Source: Candidatus Moraniibacteriota bacterium
Lineage (GTDB): Bacteria; Patescibacteriota; Minisyncoccia; Moranbacterales; UBA1568
NCBI GenBank assembly: GCA_037142915.1
Contig: JBAWZR010000002.1
Span: forward strand, 1-41,894
DNA length: 41,894 nucleotides
Direction of reading: 5' to 3'
In this document: in pieces, positions 4,920-37,003 of the stretch
How positions within the stretch are numbered: position 1 is the first letter of the stretch
Layout of the letters: each line of letters starts with the position of its first letter
Made by a program: the position numbers and the translations under genes
The notes under the pieces: generated by a model
Told to the model about the DNA's origin: nothing
Database searches by the model: none
Seen by the model: only the letters and a program-made list of their open reading frames with translations

Positions 4920-5291
4920 ATGAAAAAGTTTAGTTTTATTAAAAAAGGGCAAAGTGGCTTTATGAGTGGTTCAGTCATCTTGCTTGTTCTGGCATTAGCT
5001 ATAATAATGCTTGTAACAACAAGCTGCGCGGTGCCCTATGGCGGATACCGTGGCGGCTATGGCAACTATGGTGGTGGATACGGAGGTGGCAGGTATGCGC
5101 CATACTCCCAAGGTGGCTACTATGGTAACTATGGCGGTAACAACTACCGTGGTGGTGGCTATTATGGTGGCAACAACTATGGTGGTGGTGGCTATTATGG
5201 TGGCAACAACTATGGTGGACACCATGATGGTGGTTACCATGGCGGTTATGGCGGATACCATGACGGTGGCCGTGGAGGATGGCATCGCTAG
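4920..5291 (+). CDS. Small secreted or membrane-anchored Gly/Tyr/Asn-rich low-complexity protein
   Basis: 123-aa ORF with a good SD. The N-terminal hydrophobic segment SVILLVLALAIIMLVTTSC is followed by about 85 aa made almost only of G, Y, N, H and R (GGYYGGNNYGG repeats). Confidence 0.7.
   Translation: MKKFSFIKKGQSGFMSGSVILLVLALAIIMLVTTSCAVPYGGYRGGYGNYGGGYGGGRYAPYSQGGYYGNYGGNNYRGGGYYGGNNYGGGGYYGGNNYGGHHDGGYHGGYGGYHDGGRGGWHR
5157..5218 (+). repeat. Tandem direct repeat, 33-nt unit x about 1.9, inside the Gly/Tyr-rich CDS
   Basis: GGCTATTATGGTGGCAACAACTATGGTGGTGGT at 5157-5189 is repeated at 5190-5218. Confidence 0.8.
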
Positions 5292-5337
5292 AAAGTCAAA
5301 AAAAAGGACAACTCGCGCAGGGATGCGCAAAAAAAGA

Positions 5338-28367: not shown

Positions 28368-29681
28368 ATGGAAACAATCGAGACGCAAGAGCCTGTTCAA
28401 GAAGTATCTGTATCGCCAGCGAAAAAAAAATCTTTTTGGGAAGTTTTGTCAGTGACGCATTGGGTGTTTATCCTCGTTCTTGCAACGGGAATGTTCGGTC
28501 TGGGATGGCAACAGGCGAATCATTCCTCCTCGCGTGGTACTGTGACGGAGGCCCCGATCCCACTTCAAAAAGCAATCATCCAAAACACACAGACGCCTCA
28601 GGATGTGACGGTCGATTTTGGGCTTTTTTGGAAGGTTTGGAATCTGGTGCGAGAAAAGCATATCAATCGCGTTGATCTCGATGCAAATAAAATGCTCTAT
28701 GGAGCGATAAATGGTATGTTGGCTGCATCTGGCGATCCCTATACGAATTTTTTTGATCCGGAAGAGAATAAACAATTTACGGAAATGATAGACCAAACTT
28801 TTGATGGAATTGGCGCGGAAATGGGTATGAAGGAGAGAGTTCTCATTATCGTCGCACCTCTGGATGATTCGCCAGCTCAAAAAGCAGGGCTTATGGCTGG
28901 CGATGCCGTGCTTAAGATTGACGGTACGGATACGAGTTCGTTGACGCTTGATGAAGATGTGGCGAAAATCCGTGGCGCGAAGGGAACCGATGTCAAGTTG
29001 ACGATTTTTCGAGCTGGTGACAATGAGACCAAGGATATTGTCGTAAAACGCGATAAAATCCAAGTTAAAAGCGTGAAGTTTGAAATGAAATCCGATGGTA
29101 TTGCCTGGATTCGTATCAGTCAATTCGGTGAACAGACAACGACAGAATTTGCCGCTGCTGCCAAACAGGCGATGAACCAAAACGCAAAGGCAGTTATCGT
29201 CGATGTGCGCAATGATCCGGGGGGGTTGCTCATTTCAGCCGTCGATATCGCGGGATATTTTTTGCCCAACAAAAGCCCGGTCGTCATCGAGGAGAATTCT
29301 GCTGGAAAACGCGATACGCTCAATTCGTCAGGTAATCCGCCATTTGGTTCTCTGCCGGTCGTCGTCCTAATCGATGGTGGTAGTGCGAGTGCGTCGGAAA
29401 TCCTCGCCGGAGCACTTAAAGATGATGCGAGCGATCGTGTGACATTGGTTGGAATGAAGTCCTTCGGAAAGGGTTCGGTACAGGAGCGAATTCCCGTCAC
29501 GAGTGATACCTCGGTCAAGATCACCGTGGCGCATTGGCTCACACCTTCCGGAAAACAGATCAATAAACTCGGCATTACGCCTGATGTCGAAGTACCGATC
29601 ACTTCCGACGACATAACCAACAAAAAAGATCCTCAACTTGCCAAAGCCATCGAAATCCTCACAGGGAAAATTGGAAAGTAA
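28368..29681 (+). CDS. ctpA: S41 family C-terminal processing peptidase with PDZ domain
   Basis: The ORF has a TM anchor and a PDZ domain (GIGAEM...PLDDSPAQKAGLMAGDAVLKIDG). The catalytic region reads DVRNDPGGLL...IDGGSASASEILAGALKD...GKGSVQ. Confidence 0.9.
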   Translation: METIETQEPVQEVSVSPAKKKSFWEVLSVTHWVFILVLATGMFGLGWQQANHSSSRGTVTEAPIPLQKAIIQNTQTPQDVTVDFGLFWKVWNLVREKHINRVDLDANKMLYGAINGMLAASGDPYTNFFDPEENKQFTEMIDQTFDGIGAEMGMKERVLIIVAPLDDSPAQKAGLMAGDAVLKIDGTDTSSLTLDEDVAKIRGAKGTDVKLTIFRAGDNETKDIVVKRDKIQVKSVKFEMKSDGIAWIRISQFGEQTTTEFAAAAKQAMNQNAKAVIVDVRNDPGGLLISAVDIAGYFLPNKSPVVIEENSAGKRDTLNSSGNPPFGSLPVVVLIDGGSASASEILAGALKDDASDRVTLVGMKSFGKGSVQERIPVTSDTSVKITVAHWLTPSGKQINKLGITPDVEVPITSDDITNKKDPQLAKAIEILTGKIGK

Positions 29682-29709
29682 AAGATACGGTCTCCTGATA
29701 GATTTTTTT

Positions 29710-29740
29710 TCAAAAAGAGTTTTTTCATGCTATACTGAAA
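29710..29740 (+). promoter_or_regulatory. Conserved 31-nt promoter block TCAAAAAGAGTTTTTTCATGCTATACTGAAA
   Basis: The extended -10 is TGcTATACT (-10 at 29731-29736). The block is 28/31 identical to 32721-32751. Confidence 0.5.
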
Positions 29741-29790
29741 TCAGTAGGGGAATTGGTTTTATATAAAAATAAATATTAAAAATAATCGTT

Positions 29791-29853
29791 ATGCAATACT
29801 TGCGGATCGTTGGCGGATTCTCGTTGAGCTTTTTGAGTATTTTTTTGTACTGA
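29791..29853 (+). other. 20-codon ORF encoding an orphan Sec-type signal-peptide start, out of frame with the downstream 931-aa ORF
   Basis: MQYLRIVGGFSLSFLSIFLY* ends just after a T7 run (29840-29846). One additional T would fuse it to the long ORF. Confidence 0.6.
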
Positions 29854-29861
29854 CTTCTCCG

Positions 29862-32657
29862 GTGTCGGCAGCTGCCACGACGGATACATCTGCACCGGTT
29901 CCTGCGTCCAATCAATCTGTTCCTCTAGCCGGTACTGTCAATTGTTTTGACTATTACCATTTCGGTTCCGCTCAAGCCGATATCAGTACCAATTTGGCCT
30001 CGACCGTTTCGGGTGCGACATTGGGATTTACTGGGACGCTTTCCAATGACAACTCCTATCCGTTGGTGGACACTTCGGTCTATGTGAAGATTTTCCGCAA
30101 ACAGACGAATGAAACCGTATGGCATCAGAACGGGCATATTTTAGTCGATCAATTTTTCGCAGCAGAGCATATCGATCTGTCGGCCAAGGGGCAGAAGCCG
30201 TTCACTTTCACTTGGAAAGTTCCATCCTATGCCCTCTCCGGAGATTACTTCGCCACCACGTATGTAGTGACACAGAAGAAATTCAATTTCTTGGGACTTA
30301 CCTTCACCAATGATGTTAACGGTAATGTTGCTAATTTTAGTGTAATTGGCGAACAGACGACGAGTGTGTCAATCGACCCAAATACCCTCATGGTCGGCAA
30401 CGAGAAGAGTAGTCCAGTTCAGCCTGCAGTTTCGACGGATGCTACAACACCTGTTATTTTGGGAGCGAATGTTATTAACACTACTACTCAGGTACAGATA
30501 GTACCAGTTACTTGGACCGTGTATCATTGGGATGGTGTGGGTGAGGGTAATCAGATCGATCAGCGTACTGAGAAGATCTCTCTTAACCCCAAAGAAACGA
30601 AGCATGTCACCTACACTGTGGCTGATACCAAATACCCAGTCTATTTTTCTACACTTAAGGTTGTTTACCAGGATACTTCATCTATCGTTTCATTGCGCTT
30701 TGCACGCGATGGTATCGATCGGACCCGGATCAATTTCCCAGCTGTTACTAGCTATCCATTGGAAGCTGGTAAAACCGCCACCCTATTCTCTTGTCTACAC
30801 AATACATCGAATAGCGCCTCTGTTCAGAATGGTAAACTTAACCTCACAGTTACGGACAGCTCGGGAACAGTAATCGACTCATATGAATATACGGGTGATG
30901 TGACTGGGGCGATGATGGGAGTCAAACATGACTTCACGCCGAAGGAAACACTCGGTACATTTGATGTGAATGCTAAGCTATATCAAGATGGAAAGCTCGT
31001 AGATGAGTCGACGATGCACTATGACTGCACCACCCTAGGAGGAGTGTGTCCTCCAGCCAGTGCGACAACATTTCTCAAGACAATATCATCCAAGACCTTA
31101 CTTCTGACACTTTTATTGCTAACCATTATGTTGGGACTGATTTGGCGGATAGTACGGTCCAAGAAGTCTTCACAGCGATTGAGAGTTTGGTTTCTCGCTC
31201 TCCTGGTCGGCGTGGCGTGGCTCGTGACCGGCACCGGTGTACAGGCGGCCAGTGTGGTAGTGAAGGGAAGTGATATTCGTGATTCTGTAGATATCGACGG
31301 ATCTGGCGGGTATTGCAGTGCCAGTAGAACCTTGATCACCGCTACTTCCTCCGTTACCTACACGGCTAATGCCACGATTAACAATAGTCCGGCACCAGCT
31401 GTGTTCCCCGTCGGCACCACGGTTGTTTTTACACCGAAGTTGGGTGATATTTCTTGGTTTGCCAGTGGCAATAACTTCGATAGCCCCTATGGATTTTGGA
31501 AAGCAAATGCAGGAATGCTTCGTTTTCAGCAGTCGGTTATGCTATGGGTAGGCTGTAGCGGCGGTCAGAATTCTGGAACTTTAACGGGTTTACTCAGTGT
31601 TAATCCAGCTACTTTTACCTTTACACATACGGGAAGTACAGCGAGTCTCGATTGTTCGGTGGCCAAGGGTAAAGAAACCTGTACGATAACATCGGCGGGG
31701 AGTGTAATGACCCAAGTACATTTTAGTAATACCTATGGCAAGCTGTATACTTTCAATAGACGTTCAGAAACGCCAACCACTCCACCTTCTCTGAATACTG
31801 TTTACTCTGCTGCTGAAATAGGCCTCTCTTTTATTGCTAGTAATCCAAATAACCCTCCAGTGGCACCAGTCGTTACTGATACCAATACGATTGATAGCCA
31901 ACATGGACAGGGATCCATAAATGATCCGTTTACTATAAGTGCCGTTTCGACTGATCCGGAAGAGGATATGCTGCGGTATGGTTTTGACTGGAATATAGAT
32001 GGTGCGGTGGATGAATGGGTACCTGTGTCAGGCTATGTCGCCTCCGGTAGGAGCAGTTCGCTCAGTCACACTTGGACTACGGAGGGTACGAAACTATTCC
32101 AGGTTTTAGCACAGGATAAAAATGGGGGCTCATCGGGTTTCACTCAACATACGATTACTATCGCCCAGAAAATTAAGATCTGCCAAAATGCTTGCAATAG
32201 TGGTTTCGCTCCGGTCATACCTGTCGGACAGACGACAGGTACCATCTCGAATCTGACTAGCCCAGTCAAACTCGTTGCCTGCGCGAATAGTGATGCAGCT
32301 TGTGGAAATAGCGCCAATACTCTGACGAATAGCACGGTCACTTGGTCAGTCATCAATAACCCTTCCGGTAAAGTCACCGTTAATCCGACCAATTCGGTAA
32401 GTACGACTGTCTCTCAGAATACCGGAGGGAAAGCGGATAGCGCCACGGTTCATATTGCTTTCCCGTCCACTACCTATGCGCCGCGAGATATTAATGCGGT
32501 AGTGCCGTGTACGCCCAATTGCAAGTTCGACAGTGATCCCAGTACGAAATGTCAAGATGTGGTCATCCATGGTACGGATTTGAATCATTGCGGTGGATCA
32601 TGTCAGGCAACTGGCACCAAGGCCTGCGATTCCAATTGGAATGAGGTAGCGCCGTAA
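29862..32657 (+). CDS. Large envelope protein with two extracytoplasmic domains joined by a TM hairpin; PKD-like and Cys-rich C-terminal regions
   Basis: 931-codon ORF as tracked, with a GTG start. The central segments LLLTLLLLTIMLGLIWRIV-RSKKSSQRLR-VWFLALLVGVAWLVTG form a hairpin. DPEEDMLRYGFDWNIDGAVDEW...HTWTTEGTKLFQVLAQDKNGG resembles a PKD domain. The true N-terminus is probably at 29791 via a frameshift. Confidence 0.8.
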   Translation: MSAAATTDTSAPVPASNQSVPLAGTVNCFDYYHFGSAQADISTNLASTVSGATLGFTGTLSNDNSYPLVDTSVYVKIFRKQTNETVWHQNGHILVDQFFAAEHIDLSAKGQKPFTFTWKVPSYALSGDYFATTYVVTQKKFNFLGLTFTNDVNGNVANFSVIGEQTTSVSIDPNTLMVGNEKSSPVQPAVSTDATTPVILGANVINTTTQVQIVPVTWTVYHWDGVGEGNQIDQRTEKISLNPKETKHVTYTVADTKYPVYFSTLKVVYQDTSSIVSLRFARDGIDRTRINFPAVTSYPLEAGKTATLFSCLHNTSNSASVQNGKLNLTVTDSSGTVIDSYEYTGDVTGAMMGVKHDFTPKETLGTFDVNAKLYQDGKLVDESTMHYDCTTLGGVCPPASATTFLKTISSKTLLLTLLLLTIMLGLIWRIVRSKKSSQRLRVWFLALLVGVAWLVTGTGVQAASVVVKGSDIRDSVDIDGSGGYCSASRTLITATSSVTYTANATINNSPAPAVFPVGTTVVFTPKLGDISWFASGNNFDSPYGFWKANAGMLRFQQSVMLWVGCSGGQNSGTLTGLLSVNPATFTFTHTGSTASLDCSVAKGKETCTITSAGSVMTQVHFSNTYGKLYTFNRRSETPTTPPSLNTVYSAAEIGLSFIASNPNNPPVAPVVTDTNTIDSQHGQGSINDPFTISAVSTDPEEDMLRYGFDWNIDGAVDEWVPVSGYVASGRSSSLSHTWTTEGTKLFQVLAQDKNGGSSGFTQHTITIAQKIKICQNACNSGFAPVIPVGQTTGTISNLTSPVKLVACANSDAACGNSANTLTNSTVTWSVINNPSGKVTVNPTNSVSTTVSQNTGGKADSATVHIAFPSTTYAPRDINAVVPCTPNCKFDSDPSTKCQDVVIHGTDLNHCGGSCQATGTKACDSNWNEVAP

Positions 32658-32674: not shown

Positions 32675-32703
32675 AAACCGAGTCTTACGAACTCGGTTTT
32701 TTT
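32675..32703 (+). terminator. Intrinsic terminator
   Basis: AAACCGAGT-cttacga-ACTCGGTTT has a 9-bp perfect stem and is followed by TTTTT. Confidence 0.8.
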
Positions 32704-32720: not shown

Positions 32721-32751
32721 TCAAAAAGAGTTTTTTCGTGGTATACTGGAA
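32721..32751 (+). promoter_or_regulatory. Conserved 31-nt promoter block TCAAAAAGAGTTTTTTCGTGGTATACTGGAA
   Basis: The extended -10 is TGgTATACT (-10 at 32742-32747). It is paralogous to 29710-29740, and a shared CAGTAG(G/T)GG follows both. Confidence 0.5.
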
Positions 32752-32810
32752 GGGACAGTAGTGGTCTTTAGGGTTTCAAAAAAAATACACAAGTTGAGAA
32801 TATTTTTCCT

Positions 32811-35339
32811 GTGAATCAACCACCTCGTCATTTCCCGAAAAGAGTCCTTTCGGATATTCGTCCGCGTGTTTTTGTTGCGCCGCAACAGCCATCTTCTCAG
32901 GTTTTCCCTGAACGATTCAGTGAAATAAAAAGCGATCAAGAAGAAAGTTTTTTTGAGAGCGAGCCATCAAAGAATATATTGCAAGAAGAGAGTTGGCTCG
33001 GAGCGGAGACTTTTGGTGGAGGCGTGACTAACCCGGAGCGAGTGTCGATTGATGAGGATGCGACCTCACCACAAAAAAAATCGGTAATCGAGGAATCGGT
33101 GTTCTCGTCCGTACCGACTATTCCTATCGTGATGGGCGTCAAGCATTCCTTCAATGGCCGGATTTATCATGGTCATCGTATTACATCGCCTCCTCCCCCC
33201 GTCGAAGAGCCAGAGCAAATAGCTTTGCCTATCGAAGGCGAAGAAGAGTTTATTTCAGCTGTTGTATTTTCAGAAAAATTTTTCAAATTTACAGACCGAC
33301 TGAAAGAAGAATGGGGGATACTTCAAGAATCATCCGGTTTAGTTGGGCACACTCTTTTGAGGCAGTTGACCATGACCGCTCTGCTGCGACCAAAGCGGTT
33401 GGCGTTGGTTGCGAGTGTCGTGGCCGTAGTGTGGGGCGGTGCATTGGTGCATCGCGGTTTGGATTTGCGTGGTCAGGTTTTGGGTGTGTCGCAAACAGGA
33501 GTGAATCAACTCCAATCAGCGGTCGGGGATCTGAAGAATAAAAATTTTGATGGCTCACAACAGAGTTTTGAAAGTGCCGCTCAAGCATTCGGGGATGCAT
33601 CCCAACAATTGAATGATTGGAATAGTACTTTGGTGGAAATTTCACAGTTTATCCCAGGAGCTTCACAGCTCGCTTCGGGCAAATACGCGCTTGATGCCGG
33701 ACAGCATTTCGCGTTGGCGGGCGCAGCGATGAATCCTGTGATCAAGGATTCCCTCGATGCGTCTAAACAGGGATTGAATGGATTGCCACTGCTCGACCTC
33801 CTCCAAAAGAGTCAGGACGCGACCAAAACGGCACTTCAAGAACTCTCTCAGGCGCAGGAGGATCTCGCTAAGGTGAAAATCGATGATTTACCGGCAAACA
33901 AGCAAGCGCAATTTTTGCAGATACGACAAAATCTTCCGACCATCACGAATTCGATGCAGATTTTTCTCGATCAAAGTGCTCTTTTGGCTGATGTGTTCGG
34001 AGTCAATGGTCCTCGGAAGTATCTTTTCTTGCTTCAAAATAATCAGGAGGCTCGTGCTACTGGGGGTTTTATCGGCACCTATGCGTTGTTGGATATCAAT
34101 AATGGTCGCGTGCGGAAATTTTTCGTCGACGGAATTTTCAATCCCGACGGTCAATTGACACAGAATATCGTGCCACCATCGCCGCTTCAAAAAGTGAGTG
34201 GGGTGTGGAGTCTGCATGATAGCAACTGGTTTCCTGATTTTCCTCTGTCCGCGCAGAAGGCCATTTCGTTTTACGAAAAAACCGGTGGTCCGACCATGGA
34301 TGGTGTCATCACGCTTACGCCGACCGTTATCCAAAAACTTCTTACGCTCACGGGGCCAATCACACTCGATGAATATGGTGTCACTTTGGATTCCGATAAT
34401 TTTATGGCGCTGGTGCAGGATCAGGTCGAGTTTCATTATGACAAGGATGAGAACAAACCGAAAAAAATCCTTGCCGATCTCGTGCCATTACTCCTCGATC
34501 GTTTGGCGGGTATGCAGAGCATCGGTCAGGTGAAGGCGGCTCTTGCGATGATGGAAGCATCCCTCAATGAAAAACATATCTTGCTGTATTCGAGTCGGGA
34601 TACCATCGAGCAGAAAATCAAGGAAACCGGTTGGTCGGGTGAGGTGATCGATACGAAGCGGGATTATCTGAGTGTGATCAATACGAATATCAGTGGGTAT
34701 AAGACCGATGGCGTGATCGATCAGAGTATCCGACATCAAGCCGCTATTGCCGATGATGGTTCGATTGTCGATACGGTGACTATCACTCGACACCACACGG
34801 GTGGCAACACCCCGTATGATTTTTGGAACCGGGTGAATGCGGATTATATGCGCGTATTTGTTCCCGAGGGCTCGACTCTGCTCGACGCGAGTGGCTTTAC
34901 CCGGGAGACGGTGCAGTCACCACTGGATTACAAGGCGTTGAATTTTTCTACTGATCCGGATGTGGTTGCGGAGGAGAGTGGCACGACGGTGGATGAGAAA
35001 ACCGGCACTCGGATGTATGCACAGTCCGGTAAGACAGTGTTTGCCAACTGGGTGTATGTCAGTCCCGGTGAGACGGCCACGGTTTCGTATAAATATAAGT
35101 TACCGTTTCGTGTCGAGTCAGCGAATGATTCCGTTCGCGGTTCTTACAGTGTACTTTTTCAAAAACAATCGGGGTCGCTGGGGAGTAAACTCATCTCCGA
35201 AACAATATTTCCTCAATCGTGGAAGGTGTTGTGGAATACGGCAGATGAGGCTATCCATATTTCCGATACGGCATTAGGTTTTGACAAAGACTTGCAAACA
35301 GATCGGTTTTATGGGATAGTATTCGGGTATCCGAATTAG
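32811..35339 (+). CDS. DUF4012-domain envelope protein with a long N-terminal cytoplasmic region and one TM
   Basis: 842-codon ORF; only a GTG start (32811) is available. The TM is LALVASVVAVVWGGALV. PRKYLFLLQNNQEARATGGFIGTYALLDINNGRV...FVDGIFNPDG is the pattern I associate with DUF4012. Confidence 0.78.
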   Translation: MNQPPRHFPKRVLSDIRPRVFVAPQQPSSQVFPERFSEIKSDQEESFFESEPSKNILQEESWLGAETFGGGVTNPERVSIDEDATSPQKKSVIEESVFSSVPTIPIVMGVKHSFNGRIYHGHRITSPPPPVEEPEQIALPIEGEEEFISAVVFSEKFFKFTDRLKEEWGILQESSGLVGHTLLRQLTMTALLRPKRLALVASVVAVVWGGALVHRGLDLRGQVLGVSQTGVNQLQSAVGDLKNKNFDGSQQSFESAAQAFGDASQQLNDWNSTLVEISQFIPGASQLASGKYALDAGQHFALAGAAMNPVIKDSLDASKQGLNGLPLLDLLQKSQDATKTALQELSQAQEDLAKVKIDDLPANKQAQFLQIRQNLPTITNSMQIFLDQSALLADVFGVNGPRKYLFLLQNNQEARATGGFIGTYALLDINNGRVRKFFVDGIFNPDGQLTQNIVPPSPLQKVSGVWSLHDSNWFPDFPLSAQKAISFYEKTGGPTMDGVITLTPTVIQKLLTLTGPITLDEYGVTLDSDNFMALVQDQVEFHYDKDENKPKKILADLVPLLLDRLAGMQSIGQVKAALAMMEASLNEKHILLYSSRDTIEQKIKETGWSGEVIDTKRDYLSVINTNISGYKTDGVIDQSIRHQAAIADDGSIVDTVTITRHHTGGNTPYDFWNRVNADYMRVFVPEGSTLLDASGFTRETVQSPLDYKALNFSTDPDVVAEESGTTVDEKTGTRMYAQSGKTVFANWVYVSPGETATVSYKYKLPFRVESANDSVRGSYSVLFQKQSGSLGSKLISETIFPQSWKVLWNTADEAIHISDTALGFDKDLQTDRFYGIVFGYPN

Positions 35340-35365
35340 GGAGTTATGCGCTTGTTTTTCGAATT

Positions 35366-37003
35366 ATGCAACGATGGAAGCTTTTCGTGGAGCGATGTTA
35401 CCAGCCGATCCAGTCCGTGATGTTCTCGGCGGCAGTCATCGGGGTGGCGGGGATTTTGAGCCGATTACTCGGCTTATTTCGTGACCGATTATTGGCCTCG
35501 TCGTTTGGTGCGGGCGATACTTTGGACGCGTATTATGCCGCCTTCCGCATTCCTGATACGATTTATGGTCTCCTGATTGCGGGCGCTCTTTCGGCTGCCC
35601 TGGTGCCGGTATTCATCCAGACGCGGACGGAGAAGGGGGAATCTGCCTCATGGCGGTTGGTCTCGGACTTCCTTACGATATTAGTCGAGAGTATCTTCGT
35701 CATCACTCTTTTGGCGTTTCTTTTTTCGCCGGTGATTTTGAATTATCTTGTACCAGGATTTGTCGGTGAGAAGCGAGAGTTGACACTCGAACTCACGAGA
35801 ATTATGCTCTTGTCGCCATTAATTTTTGGTATGAGCGCCGTGTTCGGTGGTGTGCTCATCGCGCAGAAACAATTTTTCGTCTATTCGTTGGCGCCGCTCC
35901 TGTATAATGTCGGGATTATTTTCGGCATCCTCTTTGGTATTCCGTTGTTCGGAGTTTCGGCCTTGGGGTATGGTGTGCTTTTGGGTTCGTCTCTTCACTT
36001 TCTGTTGCAATGGCGGGCTGCGGCGCGATTGGGATATCATTTTCAAAGTCGGATTTTCTCCGCGTGGAAGGATAAGCTCGTGCGCCAGGTTATATGGTTG
36101 ATGATTCCGCGTTCGTTGGGGATGGCGATGAGTCAGGTCAGCCTTTTGTTGATCGCGTATTTTGCTTCTAGTCTTCCATCAGGGAGTTTGGCGGAGTTTT
36201 CGTTGGCGATCAATTTGCAGGCGGTGCCACTTGGATTGTTCGGGGTAGCTTTTTCATTGGCGGTATTTCCGACGCTCTCCCGCTATGCTGCCGAACAGGA
36301 TCTGACAGATTTTTTCTCTTTGCTGGCGAGTACGACCCGCCGTATTCTTTTTTTCGTTCTGCCGATGACCGTCCTCTTTATCGTTTTGCGGGCACAGATC
36401 GTCCGTATTGTTTTGGGTGGCGGTTATTTTAATTGGGAGGATACGATTCTGACATACAAGGTTTTGGGAATTCTCTCGCTCAGTCTATTTGCGCAGAGTC
36501 TCGTCCAACTTTTTTCGCGGGCTTTTTTCGCCCTGCACAATACGCGTACGCCATTGTTCGTTGCGGTCGTCAGTGAAGTGGTGCAGATTATTCTCCTCAT
36601 TACGCTGGTTCCGCGATTGGGGCTGCTCGCTCTGGCGGCGGCGTTTGCGATATCGAGTGTGGTTAATTGCGTGTTGCTTTACTGGTTGCTGCGCCGGCGA
36701 TTGTCGAGCGTGTGGCAGGAGCGATTGGTACTCGTGCCGACCGCCAAAATTCTCATTGCGTCATTGGGAGCGGGGATTGTTGCACAACTCACCAAGACAT
36801 GGTTCGGTCTCAATCTCAGTCCGCTCGACACCTTCGTGAGCGTGTTTTTCCAGGCGAGCATCACCACGCTGACCGCGCTCAGCATCTTCCTTATTCTGAG
36901 TCAGCTGATGCATATCGAAGAATTCGAATATCTCAAAAAGTTCATCCAAAAGAAAGTGCTCAACCAACCAACCACCCTTATGCCCGACGAAACCCACGGG
37001 TAA
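35366..37003 (+). CDS. murJ: Lipid II flippase MurJ (MviN family)
   Basis: The ORF shows LSRLLGLFRDRLLASSFGAGDTLDAYYAAFRIPDTIY and about 14 TM segments. An alternative start at ATG 35420 (MFSAAVIG...) would give a more typical N-terminus. Confidence 0.9.
   Translation: MQRWKLFVERCYQPIQSVMFSAAVIGVAGILSRLLGLFRDRLLASSFGAGDTLDAYYAAFRIPDTIYGLLIAGALSAALVPVFIQTRTEKGESASWRLVSDFLTILVESIFVITLLAFLFSPVILNYLVPGFVGEKRELTLELTRIMLLSPLIFGMSAVFGGVLIAQKQFFVYSLAPLLYNVGIIFGILFGIPLFGVSALGYGVLLGSSLHFLLQWRAAARLGYHFQSRIFSAWKDKLVRQVIWLMIPRSLGMAMSQVSLLLIAYFASSLPSGSLAEFSLAINLQAVPLGLFGVAFSLAVFPTLSRYAAEQDLTDFFSLLASTTRRILFFVLPMTVLFIVLRAQIVRIVLGGGYFNWEDTILTYKVLGILSLSLFAQSLVQLFSRAFFALHNTRTPLFVAVVSEVVQIILLITLVPRLGLLALAAAFAISSVVNCVLLYWLLRRRLSSVWQERLVLVPTAKILIASLGAGIVAQLTKTWFGLNLSPLDTFVSVFFQASITTLTALSIFLILSQLMHIEEFEYLKKFIQKKVLNQPTTLMPDETHG

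Follow-up and report, generated by a model that had tools for sequence, protein, structure and literature searches.

The element considered here is a gene for an envelope protein in a 41,894-nucleotide (nt) stretch of DNA from a Candidatus Moraniibacteriota bacterium (assembly GCA_037142915.1, contig JBAWZR010000002.1, positions 1 to 41,894; hereafter, the window), in which the signal peptide and the mature protein are encoded in different reading frames on the two sides of a run of seven T residues (T7). The T7 run is real and stable, and the gene probably carries a genuine, population-wide T8-to-T7 frameshift allele that disconnects the signal peptide and silences, or nearly silences, the envelope protein. 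Such a lesion is most likely an ordinary type of mutation, neither a sequencing error nor a case of programmed decoding. The GTG-started, 931-amino acid (aa) protein found in the databases is very probably not a real product, so that the locus would be better flagged as frameshifted, and the natural protein would be a secreted precursor of 955 aa. On this interpretation, a widespread envelope protein is in the off state in a natural population of an ultrasmall bacterium that has not been cultivated, which suggests that the protein is dispensable, or selected against, under the sampled conditions.

Reading frames at the T7 tract and their conservation across assemblies

The upstream portion of the gene is a displaced open reading frame (ORF) on the plus strand (29791-29853) that starts with the ATG at 29791-29793, extends for 20 codons and ends with the TGA at 29851-29853; its product, MQYLRIVGGFSLSFLSIFLY, corresponds to the n- and h-regions of a Sec signal peptide. 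The 931-codon ORF, which codes for the mature portion of an envelope protein found across Patescibacteria, is in the -1 frame relative to this ATG. The long frame is open from 29787 to its end at 32657, and the earliest ATG, GTG or TTG codon in it is the GTG at 29862, located 8 nt past the stop codon of the short ORF, from which the 931-aa product can be called (29862-32657, plus strand). The change of frame occurs at the T7 homopolymer (29840-29846, plus strand), which consists of exactly seven bases. If this tract were T8, its reading would be ATT TTT TTT GTA (I-F-F-V), with the signal peptide fused to the mature protein; the difference between T7 and T8 is, in effect, a toggle of this fusion.

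Addition of one T (or, equivalently, a -1 slip) yields a 955-aa precursor with the N-terminus MQYLRIVGGFSLSFLSIFFVLTSPVSA followed by AATTD, cleaved at SPVSA-AATTD. The end of the h-region and the c-region, VLTSPVSA, are encoded in the frame of the long ORF (29847-29870, plus strand), and the predicted signal-peptidase site, VSA-AA, maps between 29870 and 29871 on the same strand by inspection under the -3/-1 rule. Inspection of the restored N-terminus also reveals a single basic residue, R5, a hydrophobic core of about 17 residues, IVGGFSLSFLSIFFVLT, and V/A at positions -3/-1, that is, the basic n-region, h-region and small -3/-1 residues that characterize Sec-type substrates of signal peptidase I. 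Kyte-Doolittle values in 19-residue windows over the restored h-region are 1.6-1.9. The initial annotation of this locus, made from the sequence alone, had recognized the signal-peptide ORF with its stop codon, the long ORF open from 29787 that has no ATG and only GTG 29862 as a start, and the appearance of a textbook signal peptide with a VSA-A site, fused to the full protein, upon insertion of one T in the 29840-29846 run; upon re-examination, all coordinates proved exact and the 955-aa product was reproduced.

Two other ways to provide the long ORF with an N-terminus appear inadequate. The near-cognate start codons (ATA, ATT and CTG) in the long frame 5' of the GTG give N-termini that contain D, E or R and, by inspection, lack an adequate hydrophobic core. 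An additional base in the adjacent T5 run (29830-29834) also restores the frame but places a Glu in the h-region, which makes T8 at the neighboring tract the likelier ancestral state.

An exact look-up of the 931-aa product identifies five more contigs (L001-L005), namely, two ENA contigs with k141 names (ERZ27300140 and ERZ27300155), one NCBI metagenome-assembled genome (MAG; GCA_964476385.1) and two Logan per-run contigs (SRR7053514 and SRR7053317); the names point to short-read assemblers (k141 is MEGAHIT-style; Logan). No publication mentioning the sample accessions was found. The DNA is identical in these five assemblies across 29681-29900 and over the whole gene, including the T7. Together with the window, the six assemblies display six distinct combinations of single-nucleotide polymorphisms (SNPs) in the flanks, so the contigs are not copies of one another. 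Their alignments to the window are gap-free over up to 8.8 kb, and all 10 homopolymers of at least 7 nt in this region are constant in length, including the intergenic runs T8 (at 29703), A8 (at 32778) and T7 (at 32697). JGI holds the same 931-aa protein, with the first residue written as V instead of M. Look-ups via the upstream S41 and the downstream DUF4012 genes, which are unaffected by the frame of the gene between them, retrieve only contigs with the 931-aa call.

The in-frame, 955-aa allele is absent from a protein collection of about 15 billion entries; the 90% identity cluster consists of two 931-aa entries only, with no 955-aa member, and a homology search detects no near-identical longer protein. 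The pattern TTGAGCTTTTTGAGTA-N{4,12}-GTACTGACTTCTCC, which allows for any tract length, had no match in genome and metagenome contigs, so that this search did not sample other tract lengths. Elsewhere in the window, the boundaries between long ORFs were scanned for frame breaks at runs of at least 6 nt, and only gene junctions were found; because 240 nt or more of open frame was required upstream, the scan could not detect a break as near to a start codon as the one at the T7.

A sequencing or assembly artefact, whereby the true genome would have T8 and an intact gene, was a natural suspicion raised in the initial annotation, given that homopolymers are the classic site of indel errors and that the restored sequence is a perfect signal peptide. 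The agreement on T7 of six assemblies that derive from different assemblers and read sets and differ in their flanking SNPs, the constant length of every regional homopolymer, the identical product in JGI and, within the limits of the scan, the lack of other frame breaks in the window all contradict this suspicion, and an artefact is very unlikely, even considering that the ENA assemblies and the MAG might come from overlapping projects, so that the assemblies may not be fully independent.

No SNP is present between 29016 and 34462 in the six sequences, a 5.4-kb segment centered on the gene, and both flanks vary. This SNP-free segment could be due to chance or to a recent sweep. The flanking SNPs are clustered (27759/27765/27771, 28586-28595 and 34463-35276) and resemble recombination tracts. 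A larger difference is found downstream, where the ENA assembly ERZ27300155 contains a different, longer stretch between DUF4012 and MurJ (8498-8633 of L002 versus 35359-35372 of the window). The called length of MurJ is 545 aa on one contig and 538 aa on others, indicative of a strain-level indel at the DUF4012-MurJ junction.

An unnamed family of exported proteins

Searches of Pfam and NCBIfam with the 931-aa protein yield nothing above noise. Homology searches place it in a family of extracellular beta-sandwich proteins that is spread across Patescibacteria and has no name: a protein database search detects 30 more distant homologs (P0002-P0031; 31-47% identity), and a scan of contigs from genomes of about 186,000 species detects 178 relatives, of which 80 loci, all from uncultured MAGs, were kept. 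Most of these loci are labelled as Moraniibacteriota, Paceibacterota, Kaiserbacteria, Saccharibacteria or other lineages of Patescibacteria, and a minority of the deposited labels disagree (e.g., uncultured Bdellovibrionales). A single-protein scan of JGI metagenome contigs adds 22 relatives with only 29-46% identity, for a total of 102 loci that were compared (L009-L110), none of which exceeds about 48% identity to the window protein.

The AlphaFold model consists of successive beta-sandwich domains in residues 25-390, with the predicted local distance difference test (pLDDT) score, computed for 10-residue blocks, at about 90 or higher over most of the 50-390 region. This N-terminal domain is followed by a two-helix membrane hairpin and then by further beta domains, including a PKD-like module with the TDPxxDxxRYxxDW signature. 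A Foldseek search reveals generic similarity only, to multi-beta-sandwich, macroglobulin and Ig-like extracellular proteins (alpha-2-macroglobulin, complement and CD109) with TM-scores of 0.1-0.18, which are too low for any functional assignment. The modelled architecture is that of an exported envelope protein, and the N-domain, a confidently modelled array of beta-sandwiches resembling macroglobulin and Ig-like extracellular domains, would be expected to need export.

The central hairpin is encoded at 31095-31247 (plus strand) and comprises a first transmembrane segment (TM1; 31095-31154), the loop RSKKSSQRLR (31155-31184) and a second segment (TM2; 31185-31247) that ends with VQA-A. In relatives, TM2 ends in a conserved AEA-KSV and resembles an internal signal peptide. 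The proposal that the restored precursor adopts a topology with this basic loop in the cytoplasm holds up well: the hairpin is confirmed, and the same topology is the norm in the family. All 29 residues that are invariant in the family are retained by the 931-codon ORF.

The family layout is unusual: a signal peptide, an N-domain of about 400 aa (NCFDYYxFGS ... YDC) built of beta-sandwiches, TM1, a short basic loop, the signal-like TM2, and a C-domain that carries the PKD-like TDPDGDxxRYxxDW module. With no Pfam or NCBIfam model available, a family with this succession of signal, domain, TM, signal-like TM and domain merits separate description. Many members end in a short common C-terminal motif (WKEVAP, WREVSP, NEF, REF or VEF), which could be a sorting signal. 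For ten loci (L034, L036, L044, L050, L054, L055, L063, L065, L071 and L075), the tblastn match begins about 1.3-2.5 kb 5' of the N-terminal motif, which suggests tandem paralogs. Some genomes carry two copies of the family on different contigs (e.g., JALHPE01, CAYOHS01 and CAZUCU01).

To compare N-termini, the 102 loci were anchored at the conserved NCFDYYxFGS region and followed upstream in frame. An in-frame start codon with a typical signal peptide is present in 101 of the 102 loci, the remaining one being cut by the end of its contig. In these 101 complete relatives, the signal peptide is located 26-122 residues upstream of NCFDYYxFGS, and the corresponding distance in the restored protein is 51 residues. 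Because every complete relative carries such a signal in frame, the resemblance of the upstream ORF in the window to a signal peptide is not due to chance, and the orthologue comparison proposed in the initial annotation thus bears out its claim that the signal peptide belongs to the 931-aa protein and was split off by a one-base change in the T run. The two-frame arrangement itself was found in none of the 101 complete relatives.

A homopolymer of at least 7 nt is present within the first 105 nt of the coding sequence in 23 of the 102 relatives, none of which is frameshifted. In five relatives (L015, L017, L024, L083 and L101), an in-frame T8 encodes Phe-Phe in the hydrophobic core; T8 is therefore a natural, compositional spelling of Phe-Phe in these signal peptides. 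From this comparison of sequences, the T7 in the window appears to be a T8 that lost one base, with T8 as the ancestral state.

Mutation, recoding or switch

Under the favored interpretation as a frameshift allele, the hydrophobic core of the signal peptide would originally have been encoded with a T8 (ATT TTT TTT GTA, Ile-Phe-Phe-Val), from which one T was lost by slipped-strand mispairing, and the T7 allele would now be the consensus in each sampled population of a Moraniibacteriota-like bacterium. Transcription would probably proceed from the promoter-like element near 29707-29737; ribosomes would start at ATG 29791, translate 20 codons and stop at the TGA at 29851, leaving the extracellular multi-beta-sandwich protein in the -1 frame without a credible start or export signal of its own, and for this reason the gene would be off or strongly knocked down. 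An exportable full-length precursor would appear only rarely, through DNA reversion to T8 or through unprogrammed slips of polymerase or ribosome on U7, and the level of such slippage is likely to be low. Compared with the intact relatives, the frame break removes the signal peptide, as a null allele would. In this respect, the gene is similar to the ordinary homopolymer frameshifts in which a one-base indel in an A/T run disrupts an intact ORF (Baranov et al. 2005, PMC1088944; Atkins et al. 2016, PMC5009743), and the T7 allele is a new instance of this well-known kind of event. Low-level restoration, as in frameshifts that are rescued by slippage, is conceivable here too, but the documented rescues mostly involve runs of 8-9 nt or more, compared with the 7 nt of this tract.

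Two explanations assign a product to the locus as it stands, and both appear highly improbable. One is synthesis of the 931-aa protein without an N-terminal signal, from GTG 29862, possibly through termination-reinitiation 8 nt past the TGA, which would create a new topology in which, e.g., only the C-terminal half is exported via the signal-like TM2. The short distance between the stop codon and the GTG, the intact ORF, and the combination of TM2, the basic loop in front of it and VQA-A, which together resemble an internal signal peptide, are all compatible with this scenario. However, the GTG context is GC-rich, compared with the AT-rich start contexts of the window; all relatives appear, from their sequences, to export the N-domain via an N-terminal signal peptide; and a beta-sandwich domain of 400 aa that contains conserved cysteines would probably not function if left in the cytoplasm. 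A GTG-started product would thus probably have no function. The other explanation is programmed recoding, in which either a defined share of ribosomes undergoes a -1 slip on U_UUU_UUG or the polymerase adds a U on T7, so that the cell would make a 20-aa hydrophobic peptide along with a fixed amount of exported protein. The slippery-like heptamer T_TTT_TTG noted in the initial annotation is indeed present in the ATG frame (29841-29847), has the X_XXY_YYZ form and is followed by a zero-frame stop two codons on; the -1 product would be identical to that obtained by adding one T, and the T7 allele is stable across populations. With respect to these two features, the heptamer and the nearby zero-frame stop, the locus is similar to known cases of programmed -1 frameshifting (dnaX with A_AAA_AAG and the IS3 and IS1 transposases; Sharma et al. 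2014, PMC4066793). Programming as such is not supported. Efficient U-type heptamers in E. coli conform to H_HH.U_UU.Y, and U_UU.U_UU.G is listed as efficient only in the eukaryotic system (PMC4066793), so that the motif belongs to a class that is weak in bacteria. The 83 nt at 29848-29930 fold no better than shuffled sequences (minimum free energy -15.6 kcal/mol versus a shuffle mean of -18.3; z = +0.9), nor does the 216-nt context (z = -0.37); an Rfam search of 29400-30200 returns no match at E <= 1; and neither a Shine-Dalgarno-like stimulator upstream of the T7, in a genome largely devoid of such elements, nor a GC-rich or terminator-like hairpin before the run is detectable. Transcriptional slippage fares no better. 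In many bacteria, selection against slippage-prone A/T runs becomes apparent once a run reaches about 9 nt, and in some already at 8 nt (PMC1088944); seven T residues fall below this threshold and below the roughly 9 nt usual for productive slippage. The coding sequence of the window contains 26 A/T runs of at least 7 nt, compared with 17.6 +/- 3.1 expected under synonymous shuffling, so that such runs are, if anything, enriched, which would be unexpected if the polymerase slipped appreciably on them. In contrast to programmed frameshifting, the arrangement is not conserved, as it is absent from all 101 relatives, and the shift would serve only to produce the normal protein itself, not an alternative one. 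Thus, nothing indicates that the frameshift is programmed.

Several observations weigh against a simple loss of the gene by frameshift mutation. The gene shows no further decay, with all 931 codons open and all 29 invariant columns retained, and lies in the middle of the SNP-free segment despite the variation in its flanks; if the gene is dead, the lesion must be recent, and an intact, SNP-free body fits either a very recent lesion or a reversible one that is still in use. The assemblies display only the majority allele, so that a minority T8 subpopulation would be invisible. Furthermore, a change between A8 and A7 at the 5' end of a gene is a proven mechanism of phase variation in the tiny genome of Mycoplasma hominis: in the adhesin gene vaa, the poly-A tract in the 5' coding region is ON as A8 and OFF as A7 or A9, with switching at 1e-3 to 1e-4 (Zhang & Wise 1997, as summarized in PMC524362). 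By this analogy, the window gene could be a contingency locus, with T8 ON and exported, T7 OFF, and replication slippage interconverting the two, the sampled populations happening to be OFF-dominated, e.g., under phage, host or predator pressure on the envelope protein. The similarity to vaa is substantial, involving an A/T homopolymer of 8 versus 7 in the 5' coding region of a surface-protein gene, a one-base toggle of the frame and a very small genome, and the intact gene body and the SNP-free surroundings can be read in the same way. For vaa, however, both states and the rate of switching were measured, whereas here only the OFF length is seen. No ON allele is present in any assembly or protein collection, and tract-length polymorphism was not seen among the six assembled haplotypes and the JGI call, all of them majority alleles and all T7. 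The other regional homopolymers are length-stable across haplotypes, and all 23 relatives with a tract of at least 7 nt in the signal-peptide region are in frame. Contingency genes are expected to contain unusually long or over-represented tracts, but dozens of other tracts in the window are at least as long as the T7, which is ordinary against this background. Other T7 runs that lie in frame are located, e.g., at 28748-28754 and 32948-32954. The repeats of the Neisseria genes pilC and opa lie in the region coding for the signal peptide. As in these genes, the window locus could turn an exported protein ON and OFF via indels in a repeat inside the reading frame, but the Neisseria tracts are long, over-represented and polymorphic among strains (G9-20 in pilC, 7-21 copies of CTTCT in opa), and phasome screens in that genus apply thresholds of G >= 9 and T >= 11 (PMC5953494), well above a non-polymorphic T7. 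Phase variation therefore appears possible but rather unlikely, and a working switch similar to that of vaa can be proposed only tentatively. No report of homopolymer phase variation in bacteria of the candidate phyla radiation (CPR) was found in the literature searched. If real, this would be the first simple-sequence phase-variable surface protein described in CPR/Patescibacteria, and the switch would govern an envelope protein that is abundant and family-wide and may mediate host contact or phage exposure; should a T8 minority exist, short A/T tracts would serve as surface switches in CPR bacteria as they do in mycoplasmas.

Transcription unit and genomic context

The promoter-like element (29707-29737, plus strand) consists of TTTTCA, an 18-nt spacer and a TG-extended TATACT and lies within the 28-nt motif TCAAAAAGAGTTTTTTCRTGSTATACTG. 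This motif has two matches in the window (29710-29737 and 32721-32748), compared with 0 expected, and the two copies are located directly 5' of the 931-aa gene and of the DUF4012 gene, which suggests a common promoter or regulatory site of two envelope genes. Given this over-representation, the 931-aa gene probably has its own transcription start near 29744, with a leader of about 46 nt. A terminator-like hairpin with a T run (32675-32703, plus strand) directly follows the stop codon, with the T7 run at 32697 as its tail; the scan called this hairpin on the minus strand with the tail CTTCGATTTT, and the plus-strand reading, AAACCGAGTCTTACGAACTCGGTTTTTTT, was obtained by inspection. With these predicted signals at both ends, the 931-aa gene looks like a separate transcription unit.

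The region upstream of ATG 29791 is AT-rich and has no Shine-Dalgarno sequence, which is typical of genes in the window, whereas the context of GTG 29862, cttctccgGTG, is atypical in being GC-rich. The start regions of 28 ORFs in the window are mostly AT-rich upstream and lack a Shine-Dalgarno sequence; translation initiation in this organism thus appears to be largely Shine-Dalgarno-independent.

The neighboring genes are involved in envelope biogenesis and encode Wzy_C, glycosyltransferases, a LytR-CpsA-Psr protein, an S41 peptidase, a DUF4012 protein and MurJ. The longest homopolymer of the window, an A9 run at 28422-28430, is in frame in the part of the S41/PDZ peptidase gene that encodes its Lys-rich N-terminus and has the same length in every assembly that covers it.

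A candidate for a second frame break, at 5298-5335, was rejected because the plus-strand ORF at 4920-5291 encodes a plain Gly/Tyr-rich secreted protein and the other ORFs at this site are shadows, several of them long and overlapping it on both strands. This small protein has no Pfam match; it carries a signal or anchor at its N-terminus and, after it, a long low-complexity region rich in Gly and Tyr (YGGYRGGYGNYGGGYGGG...).

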